IMG/VR virus record: IMGVR_UViG_2802429231_000006 | Length of the DNA stretch: 7,055 nucleotides | Source of the DNA: a virus | Taxonomy: Duplodnaviria; Heunggongvirae; Uroviricota; Caudoviricetes | Strand: one strand, 5' to 3' | In this document: positions 1 through 7,055 of the stretch, in pieces | Layout: the number at the start of each line of letters is the position of its first letter | How positions within the stretch are numbered: the first letter of the stretch is position 1 | Position numbers and translations under genes: made by a program | The notes under the pieces: generated by a model | What the model was told of the DNA's origin: nothing | Databases searched by the model: none | Seen by the model: only the letters and a program-made list of their open reading frames with translations

Positions 1-1191
1 ATGAGTGACTATCATCACGGCGTGCAGGTGCTGGAGATTAACGACGGCACCCGCGTCATTTCCACCGTATCCACTGCCATTGTCGGCATGGTCTGCACGG
101 CCAGCGATGCGGATGCGGAAATCTTCCCCCTCAATAAACCGGTGCTGATTACCAATGTGCAGAGCGCAATTGCAAAGGCCGGTAAAAAAGGCACGCTGGC
201 GGCGTCGTTACAGGCCATCGCTGACCAGTCAAAACCGGTCACCGTTGTCGTCCGTGTGGAAGACGGCACCGGCGAAGACGAAGAAACGAAACTCGCGCAG
301 ACCGTTTCCAATATCATCGGCACCACCGACGAAAACGGTCAGTACACCGGACTGAAAGCCCTGCTGGCGGCGGAGTCAGTAACCGGTGTTAAACCGCGTA
401 TTCTCGGCGTGCCGGGACTGGACACCAAAGAGGTGGCTGTTGCACTGGCATCAGTCTGTCAGAAGCTGCGCGCTTTCGGGTATATCAGCGCATGGGGCTG
501 TAAGACCATTTCCGAGGTGAAAGCCTACCGCCAGAATTTCAGCCAGCGTGAGCTGATGGTCATCTGGCCGGATTTCCTCGCATGGGATACGGTCACCAGT
601 ACCACCGCCACCGCGTATGCCACCGCCCGTGCGCTGGGTCTGCGTGCCAAAATCGACCAGGAGCAGGGCTGGCATAAAACGCTGTCCAACGTCGGGGTAA
701 ACGGTGTTACCGGCATCAGTGCCTCTGTATTCTGGGATTTGCAGGAGTCCGGCACCGATGCTGACCTGCTTAACGAGTCAGGCGTCACTACGCTGATTCG
801 CCGTGACGGTTTCCGATTCTGGGGTAACCGTACCTGCTCTGATGACCCGCTTTTCCTCTTTGAAAACTACACCCGCACCGCGCAGGTGCTGGCCGATACG
901 ATGGCTGAGGCGCACATGTGGGCGGTGGACAAGCCCATCACCGCAACGCTGATTCGCGACATCGTTGACGGCATCAATGCCAAATTCCGTGAGCTGAAAA
1001 CAAACGGCTATATCGTGGATGCGACCTGCTGGTTCAGCGAAGAATCCAACGATGCGGAAACCCTCAAGGCCGGAAAACTGTATATCGACTACGACTATAC
1101 CCCGGTGCCTCCTCTCGAAAACATGACCCTGCGCCAGCGTATCACCGATAAATATCTGGCAAATCTGGTCACCTCGGTTAACAGCAATTAA
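1..1191 (+). CDS. FI: Contractile tail sheath protein (P2 gpFI family)
   Basis: 396-aa ORF starting with ATG at position 1; sequence is recognisably P2 gpFI-like (begins MSDYHHGVQVLEIN) and has the same length as P2 FI; immediately followed by the tube gene. Confidence 0.93.
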   Translation: MSDYHHGVQVLEINDGTRVISTVSTAIVGMVCTASDADAEIFPLNKPVLITNVQSAIAKAGKKGTLAASLQAIADQSKPVTVVVRVEDGTGEDEETKLAQTVSNIIGTTDENGQYTGLKALLAAESVTGVKPRILGVPGLDTKEVAVALASVCQKLRAFGYISAWGCKTISEVKAYRQNFSQRELMVIWPDFLAWDTVTSTTATAYATARALGLRAKIDQEQGWHKTLSNVGVNGVTGISASVFWDLQESGTDADLLNESGVTTLIRRDGFRFWGNRTCSDDPLFLFENYTRTAQVLADTMAEAHMWAVDKPITATLIRDIVDGINAKFRELKTNGYIVDATCWFSEESNDAETLKAGKLYIDYDYTPVPPLENMTLRQRITDKYLANLVTSVNSN

Positions 1192-1203
1192 GGAGCCTGA
1201 CCG

Positions 1204-1722
1204 ATGGCAATGCCGCGCAAACTCAAGTTAATGAACGTCTTTCTGAACGGCTACAGCTATCAGGGCGTTGCAAAGTCCGTCACGCTGCCAAAACTGACCC
1301 GTAAGCTCGAAAACTATCGCGGTGCGGGGATGAACGGCAGCGCACCGGTAGACCTCGGCCTTGATGACGATGCGCTGTCAATGGAGTGGTCGCTCGGGGG
1401 CTTTCCGGATTCGGTTATCTGGGAGCTTTACGCCGCAACCGGTGTGGATGCTGTGCCGATTCGTTTTGCAGGCTCTTACCAGCGTGACGATACCGGCGAA
1501 ACGGTGGCCGTCGAAGTGGTCATGCGTGGACGTCAGAAAGAAATCGACACCGGCGAGGGTAAACAGGGAGAAGACACTGAGTCGAAAATCTCCGTGGTCT
1601 GCACCTATTTCCGGCTGACGATGGACGGTAAGGAGCTGGTCGAAATCGACACCATCAACATGATTGAGAAGGTGAACGGCGTCGACCGGCTGGAGCAACA
1701 CCGCCGCAATATCGGCCTGTGA
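1204..1722 (+). CDS. FII: Tail tube protein (P2 gpFII family)
   Basis: 172-aa ORF with ATG at 1204 preceded by AAGGAG at 1190-1195; same length and position as P2 FII, directly after the sheath gene. Confidence 0.92.
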   Translation: MAMPRKLKLMNVFLNGYSYQGVAKSVTLPKLTRKLENYRGAGMNGSAPVDLGLDDDALSMEWSLGGFPDSVIWELYAATGVDAVPIRFAGSYQRDDTGETVAVEVVMRGRQKEIDTGEGKQGEDTESKISVVCTYFRLTMDGKELVEIDTINMIEKVNGVDRLEQHRRNIGL

Positions 1723-1729
1723 TTTTCAT

Positions 1730-1750
1730 CCGGTCAGCCTGGCTGACCGG
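1730..1750 (+). promoter_or_regulatory. Perfect 10-bp inverted repeat (CCGGTCAGCC t GGCTGACCGG) in the FII-E intergenic region; possible RNA stem-loop
   Basis: Palindrome read directly from the sequence between the FII stop (1722) and the E start (1779); there is no strong T-tract after it, so it is not a classical intrinsic terminator. Confidence 0.35.
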
Positions 1751-1778
1751 TTAACCCCGATTCATAAGTGAGAAAACC

Positions 1779-2054
1779 ATGAACAAAGAAAATGTGATTA
1801 CCCTGGACAATCCGGTCAAGCGTGGTGAGCAGGTTATCGAACAGGTCACGCTGATGAAACCCAATGCCGGGACGCTGCGCGGTGTCAGTCTGGCTGCGGT
1901 CGCAAATTCCGAAGTCGATGCACTGATTAAAGTGCTGCCGCGCATGACGGCACCGATGCTGACCGAGCAGGAGGTCGCCGCGCTGGAACTGCCTGACCTT
2001 GTGGCGCTGGCCGGTAAGGTGGTCGGTTTTTTGTCGCCGAACTCGGTGCAGTAA
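1779..2054 (+). CDS. E: Tail assembly chaperone gpE (zero-frame product)
   Basis: 91-aa ORF with ATG at 1779 and TAA at 2052-2054; position and size match P2 gene E between FII and T. Confidence 0.88.
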   Translation: MNKENVITLDNPVKRGEQVIEQVTLMKPNAGTLRGVSLAAVANSEVDALIKVLPRMTAPMLTEQEVAALELPDLVALAGKVVGFLSPNSVQ

Positions 2055-2206
2055 CGTTTCCGAAAAATCTCTCGGTCGATGACCTGATGGCGGATGTGGC
2101 AGTGATATTTCACTGGCCGCCATCAGAACTGTATCCCATGAGCCTGACCGAACTCATCACATGGCGCGAAAAGGCGCTCCGGCGAAGCGGAAACACGAAT
2201 GAGTAA
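1779..2206 (+). CDS. E+E': Tail assembly chaperone gpE+E' fusion made by programmed -1 ribosomal frameshift
   Basis: Slippery heptamer T TTT TTG at 2027-2033 lies near the 3' end of E; after a -1 slip the frame stays open for about 57 codons (…LSVDDLMADVAVIFHWPPSELYPMSLTELITWREKALRRSGNTNE) to TAA at 2204-2206, giving a product of about 142 aa as known for P2 E+E'. The extension has no start codon of its own, so it is absent from the ORF track. Confidence 0.8.
2027..2033 (+). other. Programmed -1 frameshift slippery site TTTTTTG
   Basis: Heptanucleotide in X XXY YYZ register relative to the E reading frame, positioned a few codons before the E stop; conserved mechanism in P2 E/E' and analogous to lambda G/GT. 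Confidence 0.75.
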
Positions 2207-4646
2207 CAATGTAAAATTACAGGTATTGCTCAGGGCTGTTGACCTGGCATCCCGCCCGTTTAAATCCATCCGCACAGCGAGCAAATCGCTGTCGGGGGAT
2301 ATCCGGGACACACAAAAATCACTGCGCGAGCTGAACGGTCACGCATCCCGTATTGAGGGATTTCGCAAGACCAGTGCACAGCTCGCCGTGACTGGTCAGG
2401 AACTGAAAAAAGCCAGACAGGAAGCCGCAGCTCTGGCTGTCCAGTTTAAAAATACTGAACGACCGACAAATGCACAGGCAAAGGCAATGGAAGCCGCGCG
2501 TAAAAATGCGTCTGAGTTACAGGCGAAATATAACAGCCTGAGATTGTCGGTACAGCGCCAGCGTCAGGAATTGAGTCAGGCGGGTATTAATACCCGTAAT
2601 CTGGCGCATGATGAACGAGGGCTGAAAAACCGTATCAGTGAAACCACCGCACAGCTTAACCGTCAGCGTGACGCGCTGGCACGTGTCAGTGCACAACAGG
2701 CAAAACTTAACGCAGTCAAACAGCGTTATCAGGCCGGAAAGGAACCGGCCGGAAATATGGCCTCGGTGGGCGCTGCCGGTGTGGGGATTGCGGCGGCGGG
2801 AACGATGGCCGGAGTTAAGTTGCTGATGCCCGGTTATGAGTTTGCGCAGAAAAACTCAGAATTGCAGGCCGTGCTCGGAGTGGCAAAAGACTCCGCCGAA
2901 ATGGCCGCGCTCCGCAAGCAGGCGCGCCAGCTCGGCGATAATACCGCCGCCTCGGCGGATGATGCGGCCGGTGCGCAGATTATCATTGCGAAAGCGGGTG
3001 GAGATGCTGCGGCTATTCAGGCGGCAACGCCGGTCACGCTGAATATGGCACTGGCGAATCAGCGGTCGATGGAAGAAAACGCGCAACTGTTGCTGGGGAC
3101 TAAGGCATCCTTTCAACTGTCAAATGATGATGTCAGCCATGTGGGCGACGTGTTGTCGGCAACGATGAATAAGTCGGCGGCTGATTTTCAGGGACTCAGT
3201 GATGCACTGACTTACCTCGGGCCGGTTGCGAGGACGGCAGGTGTAAGTCTTGAGCAGGCAGCGGCCATGACAGGTGTGCTGCATGACAATAACATCAGGG
3301 GGTCAATGGCGGGTACGGGTAGCAGTGCCGTTGTCACCCGATTACAGGCACCGACTGGAAAAGCATGGGATGCACTCAAAGAGCTTGGCGTTAAAACCTC
3401 GGACAAAAAGGGAAATATGCGTCCGTTGTTCACCATTCTGAAAGAGATTCAGGCCAGCTTTGATAAACACAAGCTGGGAACGTCTCAGAAGGGGGAATAC
3501 CTTAAAACCATTTTTGGTGAGGAAGCCCTGAAATCAGCGAACGTTTTACTGGCAGCGGCAGCAAGCGGAAAACTGGATACGCTGACCGCCACGCTGAAAG
3601 CCTCGGACGGTAAAACGGAAGAGCTGGTTAAAATCATGCAGGATAACCTCGGCGGTGACTTTAAGGAGTTTCAGTCCGCTTATGAGGCGGTGGGGACAGA
3701 CCTGTTTGACCAGCAGGAAGGCGCACTGCGTAAGCTCACTCAGACGGCCACAAAGTATGTGTTAAAACTCGACGGCTGGATCCAGAAAAACAAATCACTG
3801 GCATCAACCATCGGCCTCATTGTCGGTGGCGCGCTGGCGCTTATTGGCATCATCGGTGCAATTGGTCTTGTAGCCTGGCCGGTTATCACCGGCATCAATG
3901 CCATCATCGCGGCAGCAGGCGCAATGGGGGCAATCTTCACGACGGTTGGCAGTGCTGTTATGACCGCCATCGGGGCGATTAGCTGGCCGGTTGTGGCTGT
4001 GGTGGCTGCCATTGTCGCCGGGGCGTTGCTTATCCGTAAATACTGGGAGCCTGTCAGCGCATTCTTTGGTGGTGTGGTTGAAGGGCTGAAAGCAGCATTT
4101 GCGCCAGTGGGGGAACTGTTCACGCCACTTAAACCGGTGTTTGACTGGCTGGGTGAAAAGTTACAGGCCGCGTGGCAGTGGTTTAAAAACCTGATTGCCC
4201 CGGTCAAAGCCACCCAGGACACCCTGAACCGTTGCCGTGACACGGGCGTCATGTTCGGGCAGGCACTGGCTGACGCGCTGATGCTGCCGCTTAATGCGTT
4301 CAACAAACTGCGCAGTGGTATTGACTGGGTACTGGAAAAACTCGGTGTTATCAACAAAGAGTCAGACACACTTGACCAGGCCGCCGCCAGAACTCAAGCC
4401 GCCACGTATGGCAGCGGTGGTTATATTCCGGCGACCAGCTCTTATGCAGGTTATCAGGCTTATCAGCCGGTCACGGCACCGGCTGGCCGCTCTTATGTGG
4501 ACCAGAGTAAAAACGAATATCACATCAGCCTGACGGGTGGTACTGCGCCGGGGACACAGCTCGACCGCCAGTTACAGGATGCGCTCGAAAAATACGAGCG
4601 GGATAAACGTGCGCGCGCCCGTGCCAGCATGATGCATGACGGTTAA
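2199..4646 (+). CDS. T: Tail tape measure protein (P2 gpT family)
   Basis: 815-aa ORF with ATG at 2199 overlapping the E' stop by 8 nt; Ala/Gln-rich N-terminal region that looks coiled-coil, long Gly/Ala-rich hydrophobic central segment and the expected position after the chaperone genes; same length as P2 T. Confidence 0.93.
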   Translation: MSNNVKLQVLLRAVDLASRPFKSIRTASKSLSGDIRDTQKSLRELNGHASRIEGFRKTSAQLAVTGQELKKARQEAAALAVQFKNTERPTNAQAKAMEAARKNASELQAKYNSLRLSVQRQRQELSQAGINTRNLAHDERGLKNRISETTAQLNRQRDALARVSAQQAKLNAVKQRYQAGKEPAGNMASVGAAGVGIAAAGTMAGVKLLMPGYEFAQKNSELQAVLGVAKDSAEMAALRKQARQLGDNTAASADDAAGAQIIIAKAGGDAAAIQAATPVTLNMALANQRSMEENAQLLLGTKASFQLSNDDVSHVGDVLSATMNKSAADFQGLSDALTYLGPVARTAGVSLEQAAAMTGVLHDNNIRGSMAGTGSSAVVTRLQAPTGKAWDALKELGVKTSDKKGNMRPLFTILKEIQASFDKHKLGTSQKGEYLKTIFGEEALKSANVLLAAAASGKLDTLTATLKASDGKTEELVKIMQDNLGGDFKEFQSAYEAVGTDLFDQQEGALRKLTQTATKYVLKLDGWIQKNKSLASTIGLIVGGALALIGIIGAIGLVAWPVITGINAIIAAAGAMGAIFTTVGSAVMTAIGAISWPVVAVVAAIVAGALLIRKYWEPVSAFFGGVVEGLKAAFAPVGELFTPLKPVFDWLGEKLQAAWQWFKNLIAPVKATQDTLNRCRDTGVMFGQALADALMLPLNAFNKLRSGIDWVLEKLGVINKESDTLDQAAARTQAATYGSGGYIPATSSYAGYQAYQPVTAPAGRSYVDQSKNEYHISLTGGTAPGTQLDRQLQDALEKYERDKRARARASMMHDG

Positions 4647-4660
4647 GGAGGTGACGAAAA

Positions 4661-5140
4661 ATGATGCTCGCGTTAGGTATGTTTGTTTTTATGCGCCAGA
4701 CGCTGCCACACCAGACCATGCAGCGTGAATCAGATTATCGCTGGCCGTCAAATTCCCGTATCGGTAAACGGGATGCCTTTCAGTTTCTCGGTGTGGGTGA
4801 GGAAAACATCACGCTTGCCGGTGTGCTTTATCCCGAACTGACCGGCGGCAAGCTGACGATGACCACGCTCAGACTGATGGCAGAGGAAGGCCGGGCGTGG
4901 CCGTTGCTGGATGGCACCGGCATGATTTACGGCATGTATGTCATCGGCAGGGTGAGTGAAACAGGGAGTATTTTCTTTGCAGACGGCACACCCCGAAAAA
5001 TTGATTTTACGCTGTCGCTCACCCGCGTTGATGAATCACTGGCCGCGCTGTATGGCGATATCGGTAAACAGGCGGAATCGCTCATCGGTAAGGCTGGCAG
5101 TATGGCGACCAGATTCACGGGTATGACGGGGGCGGGATAA
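4661..5140 (+). CDS. U: Tail protein gpU (tail terminator/completion family)
   Basis: 159-aa ORF with ATG at 4661 preceded by AAGGAGG at 4645-4651; same size and position as P2 U. Confidence 0.9.
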   Translation: MMLALGMFVFMRQTLPHQTMQRESDYRWPSNSRIGKRDAFQFLGVGEENITLAGVLYPELTGGKLTMTTLRLMAEEGRAWPLLDGTGMIYGMYVIGRVSETGSIFFADGTPRKIDFTLSLTRVDESLAALYGDIGKQAESLIGKAGSMATRFTGMTGAG

Positions 5141-6303
5141 TGCTGGATGCGCTGACATTTGATGCAGGCAGTACGCTGACGCCGGATTACATGCTGATGC
5201 TCGACAGCAGGGATATTACCGGCAATATCAGCGACCGTCTGATGAGCATGACCCTGACGGATAACCGGGGCTTTGAGGCTGACCAGCTTGATATTGAACT
5301 GAACGATGCCGACGGGCAGGTCGGGCTGCCGGTTCGTGGCGCTGTCCTGACGGTGTATATCGGCTGGAAAGGTTTTGCCCTGGTATGCAAAGGGAAATTT
5401 ACCGTTGATGAGGTTGAACACCGGGGCGCGCCGGATGTGGTCACCATCCGCGCCCGGAGTGCAGATTTTCGCGGGACGCTCAATTCCCGCCGGGAAGGCT
5501 CCTGGCATGACACCACACTCGGTGCGATTGTTGAGGCGATAGCCTCCCGTAACAAGCTGGAGGCCAGTGTCGCTCCGTCACTGGCCGGAATTAAAATCCC
5601 GCACATCGACCAGTCGCAGGAGTCTGATGCGAAATTCCTGACCCGTCTTGCAGAACGCAACGGCGGTGAGGTGTCGGTAAAAATGGGAAAACTGTTGTTT
5701 CTCAAAGCGGGGCAGGGGGTGACGGCCAGCGGTAAAAAAATCCCGCAGGTCACCATCACCCGCAGCGACGGCGACCGTCATCATTTTGCGATTGCTGACC
5801 GTGGAGCTTACACCGGCGTAACGGCAAAGTGGTTACACACCAAAGACCCGAAGCCGCAAAAGCAGAAGGTAAAACTGAAACGCAAAAAGAAAGAAAAACA
5901 CCTGCGCGCACTGGAGCACCCGAAAGCGAAACCAGTCACGCAGAAGAAAGCGCCAAAAGCACCGGAAGCGCGCGAAGGTGAATACATGGCCGGTGAGGCT
6001 GACAACGTTTTTGCCCTGACTACGGTTTATGCCACGAAAGCACAGGCCATGCGCGCCGCTCAGGCGAAGTGGGATAAACTGCAACGGGGCGTTGCGGAGT
6101 TCTCCATCAGCCTGGCTACCGGTCGGGCAGATATTTACACGGAAACACCGGTCAAAGTGTCTGGCTTTAAGCGCGTCATAGACGAGCAGGACTGGACAAT
6201 CACTAAGGTGACACATTTTCTGAATAATAGCGGCTTCACGACGTCCTTAGAGCTTGAGGTCAGGCTTTCTGATGTGGAGTACGAAACAGAAGATGATGAG
6301 TGA
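5140..6303 (+). CDS. D: Late control gene D protein gpD (tail/baseplate hub-like protein)
   Basis: 387-aa ORF whose ATG overlaps the U stop (TAATG at 5138-5142), suggesting translational coupling; same length and position as P2 D; contains a Lys/Pro-rich basic segment. Confidence 0.9.
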   Translation: MLDALTFDAGSTLTPDYMLMLDSRDITGNISDRLMSMTLTDNRGFEADQLDIELNDADGQVGLPVRGAVLTVYIGWKGFALVCKGKFTVDEVEHRGAPDVVTIRARSADFRGTLNSRREGSWHDTTLGAIVEAIASRNKLEASVAPSLAGIKIPHIDQSQESDAKFLTRLAERNGGEVSVKMGKLLFLKAGQGVTASGKKIPQVTITRSDGDRHHFAIADRGAYTGVTAKWLHTKDPKPQKQKVKLKRKKKEKHLRALEHPKAKPVTQKKAPKAPEAREGEYMAGEADNVFALTTVYATKAQAMRAAQAKWDKLQRGVAEFSISLATGRADIYTETPVKVSGFKRVIDEQDWTITKVTHFLNNSGFTTSLELEVRLSDVEYETEDDE

Positions 6304-6321
6304 TGTTTTTGTTTTATCTAT

Positions 6322-6350
6322 TTGTTTTGTAAGGATAAATTAACTAAAAT
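6322..6350 (+). promoter_or_regulatory. Candidate sigma70 promoter for ogr (TTGTTT-N17-TAAAAT) with T-rich upstream region
   Basis: -35-like TTGTTT at 6322-6327 and -10-like TAAAAT at 6345-6350 with a 17-bp spacer, about 35 bp upstream of the ogr ATG; P2 ogr is known to have its own promoter. Called by sequence pattern only. Confidence 0.45.
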
Positions 6351-6384
6351 GGCACCATCAACAAAACCGGAAGAGGTGCTCGCG

Positions 6385-6603
6385 ATGTTTCATTGTCCTT
6401 TATGCCAGCATGCCGCACATGCGCGTACAAGCCGCTATATCACTGACACGACAAAAGAGCGTTATCACCAGTGTCAGAACGTGAATTGCAGCGCCACGTT
6501 CATCACTTATGAGTCGGTACAGCGATACATTGTGAAGCCGGGAGAAGTCCACGCCGTAAGGCCGCACCCGTTGCCGTCAGGGCAGCAAATTATGTGGATG
6601 TAA
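6385..6603 (+). CDS. ogr: Late transcription activator Ogr (Cys4 zinc-finger protein)
   Basis: 72-aa product from ATG 6385 (MFHCPLCQHAAHARTSRY…) preceded by GGAAGAGGTG at 6369-6378; C-x2-C-x22-C-x4-C zinc-binding motif; size and sequence match P2 Ogr. The 93-aa ORF in the track begins at a TTG inside the putative promoter and is an over-extension. Confidence 0.9.
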   Translation: MFHCPLCQHAAHARTSRYITDTTKERYHQCQNVNCSATFITYESVQRYIVKPGEVHAVRPHPLPSGQQIMWM

Positions 6604-6613
6604 TTACAAACAG

Positions 6614-6646
6614 AAGCCCCTCAGTCGAGGGGCTTTCAACTTTGTT
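6614..6646. terminator. Bidirectional rho-independent terminator between convergent ogr and the minus-strand gene
   Basis: GC-rich 9-bp stem (6614-6622 pairing with 6627-6635, core GCCCCTC/GAGGGGC) with loop AGTC, followed by T-rich sequence on the + strand (TTTcaacTTTGTTT) and by a U-rich tract on the minus-strand transcript (revcomp of 6601-6613). Confidence 0.7.
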
Positions 6647-6653
6647 TAGGAGC

Positions 6654-7055
6654 TTATTTCCCTGTGTAAAGACGTGTTTGGGATGAAAGTAACACTTGCC
6701 CCTGTTTAGGCGTCAACGAACCTATTTCATTGCATGTTTTTAATGGTTCGGAAAAAACATAACCGATGGATTTATATTGATTAACTATGCTTATTTCTTT
6801 GATTTTTTTGAGATATGAAACAGGCGTGTCTTTTGTCCAGACTGGTGTGCATACACCCGTCATAATCAGGTTGTTGTAGGCGTCAGGAGAGATTTCTTTG
6901 CTAGGAAGCACCACCGTAAGCGAGTTGTTTTTATTCGTGATTTCTAGGGGTTGCCATGGTTTAAGCTGCTTTTGAAGGGTTTTAATATCACTCGCGTTTG
7001 CGTTGAGTGAAATTATTAAGGTGGCTATTGCCATCACTGATTTAAGAGTTGCCAT
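6654..7055 (-). CDS. Hypothetical secreted/periplasmic protein, 133 aa, with N-terminal Sec signal peptide; unknown function
   Basis: Complete ORF from ATG (revcomp of 7053-7055) to TAA (revcomp of 6654-6656); N-terminus MATLKSVMAIATLIISLNANA followed by SD has a positive n-region, hydrophobic core and A-x-A cleavage motif; two Cys in the mature part; AT-rich unlike the phage genes; no family recognised from memory. Confidence 0.65.
   Translation of the reverse strand: MATLKSVMAIATLIISLNANASDIKTLQKQLKPWQPLEITNKNNSLTVVLPSKEISPDAYNNLIMTGVCTPVWTKDTPVSYLKKIKEISIVNQYKSIGYVFSEPLKTCNEIGSLTPKQGQVLLSSQTRLYTGK

Follow-up and report, generated by a model that had tools for sequence, protein, structure and literature searches.

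Three variable loci, made up of AT-rich accessory genes acquired horizontally, are recognised in P2-like phages: the TO-region (tin/old), the Z-region (Z/fun) and orf30 (PMC3091744). The chromosomal interval between cpxP and fieF is the site of the P2-like prophage Wphi1 in E. coli W (PMC3032704); an O157 strain carries a prophage of 31 kb there (PMC7609406). In P2, the 27-bp attP core, AAAAAATAAGCCCGTGTAAGGGAGATT, is annotated at AF063097 24356-24382. Both P2 and Wphi (Peduovirus Wphi) carry only one hairpin past ogr, AGCCCCTCAGT[C/T]GAGGGGCTTT, and their Int repeats begin 4-8 nt further on. Here we analyse a stretch of phage DNA of 7,055 nucleotides, hereafter the window, whose final part departs from this compact arrangement.

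Positions 1-6603 of the window derive from a P2-like (Peduovirus) phage and form its tail and late-control module. This module comprises FI (1-1191), FII (1204-1722), the E/E′ tail chaperone pair (1779-2054), T (2199-4646), U (4661-5140) and D (5140-6303). The late-gene transcription activator ogr (6385-6603, plus strand) follows, and is the final conserved P2 backbone gene within the window. It matches the NCBIfam equivalog NF007241 over its full length (E 4.6e-53), and matching records annotate it as ogrK or Ogr. The E/E′ pair contains a T-run slippery site (2027-2033). The slippery run GGTTTTTTG, at about 2025-2033 and immediately ahead of the E stop, is an ordinary P2 feature and fits the known −1 frameshift of P2.

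An earlier note on this DNA had reported a sharp fall in GC content just past ogr, centred on a hairpin. The fall is real. GC content amounts to 55.1% over 1-6603 and 51.1% in ogr, and drops to 39.2% over 6638-7055; the lowest value of any 418-bp segment in 1-6603 is 44.7%, still above that of the distal part. The change point, taken as the maximum difference between the left and right 200 bp, lies at 6633, on the ogr hairpin (6613-6636). Codon usage, which the note had proposed as a check, confirms the break: the minus-strand open reading frame at 6654-7055 has a GC content of 39.3% and a GC3 of 39.6%, against 51-57% and 58-68% in the neighbouring phage genes. Judged by the end of the megablast match to P2 and by the GC contrast, the breakpoint is located at 6636-6638. 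A second, shorter low-GC patch (34.6%) occupies the D-ogr intergenic region (6304-6384), the P2 counterpart of which holds the annotated ogr promoter. Low GC by itself is therefore no marker of foreign DNA in this window.

The nature of the DNA past the breakpoint was addressed by megablast against phage records, with positions 6300-7055 and the entire window as queries. Among the matches listed, those of P2 and of all other records lacking the minus-strand gene end at window position 6636 or 6637, yet three phage records, those of Yersinia phage GMS190 and both records of P37, reach 7055. Identity over 6300-7055 is 98.4% for GMS190 and 84% for P37. When the translated reading frame was searched with tblastn, it matched P37 at 69% and Salmonella phage FSL SP-004 at 59% protein identity; remoter homologs were found in Peduoviridae of Klebsiella, Serratia and Burkholderia. 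The annotated gene order in P37 and FSL SP-004 is D, ogr, the minus-strand gene (convergent), int, C and cox. Among collinear close relatives the gene is thus present in GMS190, P37 and FSL SP-004 and absent from P2 and Wphi. Bacterial chromosomes were surveyed in a set of 5426 complete E. coli genomes. The query carrying ogr is matched by 2074 of them, and 44 carry 6640-7055, in one copy each. In 44 of these 44 genomes ogr and the gene are contiguous, and none of the 5426 has the gene apart from an adjacent ogr.

Since the DNA past 6636 is present in the free phage genomes GMS190, P37 and FSL SP-004, it is phage DNA. At a prophage-host junction, the far side would be missing from free phages and present in prophage-free chromosomes, and 6604-6700 does not show this pattern. 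The break at 6636/6637 is very probably the boundary between a P2-type backbone and a phage-borne accessory cassette, and not a host junction. The reading frame at 6654-7055 is phage cargo, an accessory gene of putative moron type. The earlier note had raised a possible prophage-host junction at 6604-6700, with the minus-strand gene as flank of which only the last codons could be supplied by the phage; both proposals have to be given up, as 6637-7055, with the entire gene, occurs in phage genomes. It had itself named phage homology through 6654-7055 as an argument against a junction, and virion-derived genomes display exactly this homology. Its alternative of cargo inserted between ogr and att proves to be right, the gene being placed between ogr and int in P37 and FSL SP-004.

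A second line of evidence concerns the attachment site. The P2 att core was correctly given in the earlier note and is indeed missing from the window: a search with AAAAAATAAGCCCGTGTAAGGGAGATT yielded no matches at up to three mismatches on either strand. A weak resemblance to this core at 6651-6680 had been taken as a possible degenerate or secondary att site. The ungapped comparison at 6651 gives 14 identities in 27, while the best position elsewhere in the window gives 18 and the maxima of 200 shuffled sequences range from 15 to 19. The resemblance is thus no more than chance, being lower than the best position elsewhere and than every shuffle maximum. The segment at 6651-6680, rejected as an att core, is really the 3′ end of the cargo gene with three bases of spacer, and it is shared with free phages. 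A further suggestion, that of a different integration specificity, was right: judged by the identical relatives, the specificity is of the Wphi type, at cpxP-fieF.

The adjoining DNA can be viewed in E. coli M45, which matches window positions 6640-7055 at 100% identity (position 6001 of its locus L001 corresponds to window 6300). Past the ATG of the cargo gene, M45 presents in order an AAGGA motif, about 60 bp of AT-rich DNA, a second hairpin, Int-type repeats, an AT-rich inverted repeat, a 47-bp block and the upstream region of fieF. The second hairpin (hairpin 2), AAAGCCCCATGTGCTTAGGGGCTTT, at L001 6817-6841, has terminator-like character when read on the minus strand. Resembling the annotated Int P-arm site of P2, the direct repeats TCGATGTGGACGCTATGTGGAC are putative Int arm sites. 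Putative arm-type repeats of the form GATGTGGAC-N5-TGTGGAC are located in the relatives, outside the window, at L001 6848-6869 and 6876-6897, and the AT-rich inverted repeat of the relatives occupies the position of the P2 IHF site.

The 47-bp identity block, GACACCATCCCTGTCTTCCCCCACATGATGTGGGGGTTTTTTTTATC, forms attR of the M45 prophage at L001 6919-6965 and attL at L004 7050-7096. At the attL end the block adjoins cpxP and is followed by P′-arm-like repeats and int, which delimits a prophage of about 30.5 kb. The block also occurs in attP of P37, GMS190, FSL SP-004 and Wphi. In the empty site of K-12 (attB, L005 1845-1891) it is present with one difference in the hairpin loop, and matches of the M45 attR query to genomes whose site is empty begin only at the block's first base. 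An att repeat shared by both prophage ends, for which the earlier note had proposed a search, does exist in M45, only not at the 6645-6685 stretch named there. The window itself contains no match to the Wphi-type core at up to three mismatches (46-mer, GACACCATCCCTGTCTTCCCCCACATGATGTGGGGGTTTTTTTTATC minus its first G). The att region of the cargo-bearing lineage is of the Wphi type and lies beyond the cassette. Should the source DNA run on past the window as it does in M45, its att block would sit at about 7218-7264, some 163-209 bp beyond the window end. The attR query also found 6263 places against 5426 E. coli genomes. As places outnumber genomes, this suggests several hundred genomes with a second copy of the core, and hence an occupied cpxP-fieF site, about 44-46 of them with the cassette.

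The 47-bp block overlaps an sRNA gene. CpxQ is an sRNA derived from the 3′UTR of cpxP, and its gene is placed at L005 1831-1888 by the K-12 RefSeq annotation, on which the identification of cpxQ rests. The block, located between cpxP and fieF, spans the last 44 nt of cpxQ, among them the terminator. Integration of the phage therefore takes place in this 3′ part of cpxQ, which the phage itself restores. In lysogens the 3′ end of CpxQ thus comes from the phage and has A for C in the terminator loop. Rfam at gathering thresholds reported no family at the att core, cpxQ included, and none in the window, and among the papers listed by a literature search none ties CpxQ to attB or P2-like phages.

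The borders of the cassette are formed by hairpins. The hairpin at 6613-6636 (hairpin 1) is the intrinsic terminator of ogr and the F operon. It is terminator-like on the plus and minus strands, folding at −19.5 and −19.6 kcal/mol (z −3.3 and −4.3 against shuffles), and has the sequence of the annotated P2 terminator at 24265-24288. Its T-tract is interrupted in the window (CTTTCAACTTTGTT), where P2 has CTTTTTTGT. Because hairpin 1 is identical to that of P2 through GGGGCTTT, we regard it as the original ogr terminator. It likely also terminates the convergent cargo gene, which is flanked on both sides by terminator-like hairpins. In a multiple alignment, the P2/Wphi hairpin is split in the cargo-bearing genomes: its left arm corresponds to hairpin 1 and the right arm to hairpin 2, the two being separated by the cassette. 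Furthermore, a repeat search of locus L001 of M45 revealed an 11-bp perfect direct repeat, AGGGGCTTTCA. The left copy is found at window 6628-6638 (plus strand; L001 6329-6339) and the right copy at L001 6833-6843, outside the window. The two copies are the 3′ arms of two similar GC-rich hairpins flanking the cassette, and their spacing of 504 bp gives the cassette a size of 504 bp. This repeat could be the trace of an insertion event or the substrate for precise deletion.

The same anatomy can be given the reverse history. The gene would then be ancestral and fixed in its position, and P2, Wphi and most coliphage relatives would have lost it by deletion between the hairpin repeats. The distribution of homologs lends this some credit. 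Distant homologs in Dickeya, Paraburkholderia and Klebsiella michiganensis are situated at the end of P2-like prophages, convergent with Ogr_Delta or Phage_GPD genes; where this prophage end abuts the chromosome, ordinary host genes come next. In Klebsiella phage ST147-VIM1phi7.1 the gene stands between D and ogr, in Burkholderia phage KS14 (gp9) it directly follows D, and Serratia KSP20 has a further homolog in the same place. The att-proximal location, convergent with D or ogr, thus recurs across these genera, and the 11-bp repeat could mediate deletion as readily as mark insertion. However, the gene is much lower in GC and GC3 than the phage genes around it, and it is rare in E. coli P2-like prophages (44 versus 2074 genomes). 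In addition, every coliphage and Salmonella phage with the cargo that was checked has a Wphi-type att, which suggests a single lineage. We consider an ancestral gene possible but rather unlikely. Low GC and rarity favour gain of the cassette, while conserved position and flanking repeat are compatible with ancestry followed by deletion.

The cargo gene (6654-7055, minus strand) encodes a protein of 133 amino acids, its ATG being the final three bases of the window. The protein matches the profile of phrog_3807 over its full length (E 5.6e-56, residues 1-133 on positions 1-135 of 135). No match was found in Pfam, PADLOC or NCBIfam, nor in the PDB by sequence profile. Foldseek identified no matching solved structure in the PDB (best E 0.07, TM < 0.4), and among the viral models of BFVD it retrieved the protein's own family alone. 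A profile search gathered 67 clusters from Enterobacterales and Burkholderia/Paraburkholderia, all labelled hypothetical. One homolog bears the UniRef label ‘DUF4431’, which was rejected because a Pfam scan of 43 members did not reproduce it. Across 43 sequences, residues L27, C69, N92, G98 and C108 do not vary. The AlphaFold model (AF2, with the family alignment) has an alpha/beta fold with a pLDDT of 85.4 and a pTM of 0.76, residues 1-19 being unstructured. Inspection by eye suggests that the N-terminus, MATLKSVMAIATLIISLNANA|SD, is built like a Sec signal peptide (n-h-c) with no lipobox: a basic n-region, a hydrophobic core and an A-x-A motif, with both invariant cysteines in the mature part.

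These properties also bear on whether the reading frame is a functional gene at all, as the AT-rich stretch separating ogr from attP might be non-coding spacer or what is left of a decayed gene. The protein has no annotated function and no family outside PHROGs, and a scan of the relatives found no sigma-70-like promoter upstream of the gene. However, the 67 clusters are conserved over the full length at 20-73% identity, with invariant Cys, Gly and Asn residues and no truncations. The structural model is confident, and by eye a Shine-Dalgarno-like AAGGA precedes the ATG by 6 nt in the relatives. A non-functional reading frame is accordingly very improbable.

Lastly, a host junction, in which the GC break would be attR and the minus-strand gene a host gene with its last codons derived from a degenerate P2 core at 6651-6680, agrees with the GC drop at the end of P2 homology just past ogr and with a P2 attP core only about 100 bp after ogr, but is extremely improbable given that packaged phage genomes contain the gene and its flanks from ogr to int, that E. 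coli never has the gene without ogr, that the true att repeats are located elsewhere and that the core resemblance is below chance.

For the accessory cassette we propose the following scheme. The cassette lies, as in M45, between the ogr terminator and the complete left arm of attP in a P2-like phage with Wphi-type att. Transcription of the cargo gene would proceed leftward and end at the shared hairpin (6613-6636), and hairpin 2 may insulate the gene from leftward transcription through attP. Past the 47-bp block, the phage form would continue with AATCACTTACAT... and then int, and the prophage form with the upstream DNA of fieF. The product would be exported to the periplasm via its predicted Sec signal peptide and stabilised by a putative disulfide bond between C69 and C108. 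Tentatively, it may act as an envelope factor expressed in the lysogen, for instance in superinfection exclusion or another form of lysogenic conversion.

In a Paraburkholderia terricola prophage, a homolog of the cargo gene (L014 5479-5844) has as its divergent neighbour a small gene that hits Tlde1_dom (PF10908), which we take to be a periplasmic L,D-transpeptidase effector domain of type VI secretion. This neighbour may hint at a cell-wall-related role or be a coincidence. Taken together, the cargo protein might be an uncharacterised, periplasmic and disulfide-bonded factor with a fold unlike solved structures, att-proximal in P2-family phages from Enterobacterales to Burkholderia. That it is an envelope-level lysogenic-conversion or superinfection-exclusion protein is a possibility to which we give less than even weight.

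In practice, the prophage boundary shifts: the gene at 6654-7055 is to be assigned to the phage, and the end of the prophage is expected about 200 bp past the window, in the 3′ end of cpxQ. If the GC break were taken as the boundary, a phage gene would be mis-assigned to the host. In biological terms the finding is modest, since a further AT-rich accessory gene in the att-proximal position is ordinary for this group of P2-like phages. The wider interest lies in the protein family. Being positionally conserved and apparently secreted, and matching neither solved structures nor families of known function, the cargo protein is a reasonable candidate for a prophage envelope or defence factor.

Compared with known systems, the locus is close to Wphi, with which it shares the backbone, ogr with its terminator hairpin and the cpxP-fieF site. 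The identical relatives further share with Wphi the Int arm repeats, the AT-rich inverted repeat, the 47-bp core and the sequence on the int side. In contrast to Wphi, where the Int repeats begin 8 nt past the ogr terminator, the cargo-bearing arrangement has the 504-bp cassette and its convergent gene in between. P2 is 97.9% identical through ogr and the terminator to window 6636, and the order of elements (terminator, Int P arm, IHF region, core, P′ arm, int) is the same. However, P2, with its locI specificity, has a 27-bp core that differs from the 47-bp core of the cargo lineage, and no gene separates its ogr from attP.

The genes old, tin and fun have exclusion phenotypes, whereas the cargo gene has no such known phenotype. 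The cassette resembles the variable loci of P2-like phages in that a low-GC gene, flanked by terminator hairpins, is present in only some of several near-identical genomes, but the interval between ogr and attP is not among the three hot spots described (PMC3091744). An assignment of this interval to the published TO-region was rejected, as that region is the tin/old end of P2 (PMC3091744). Close counterparts are also GMS190, P37 and FSL SP-004, in which the gene has the identical position and orientation and the att core is common. They differ in being linear virion or phage records, and for this reason the gene is followed there by int and not by host DNA.
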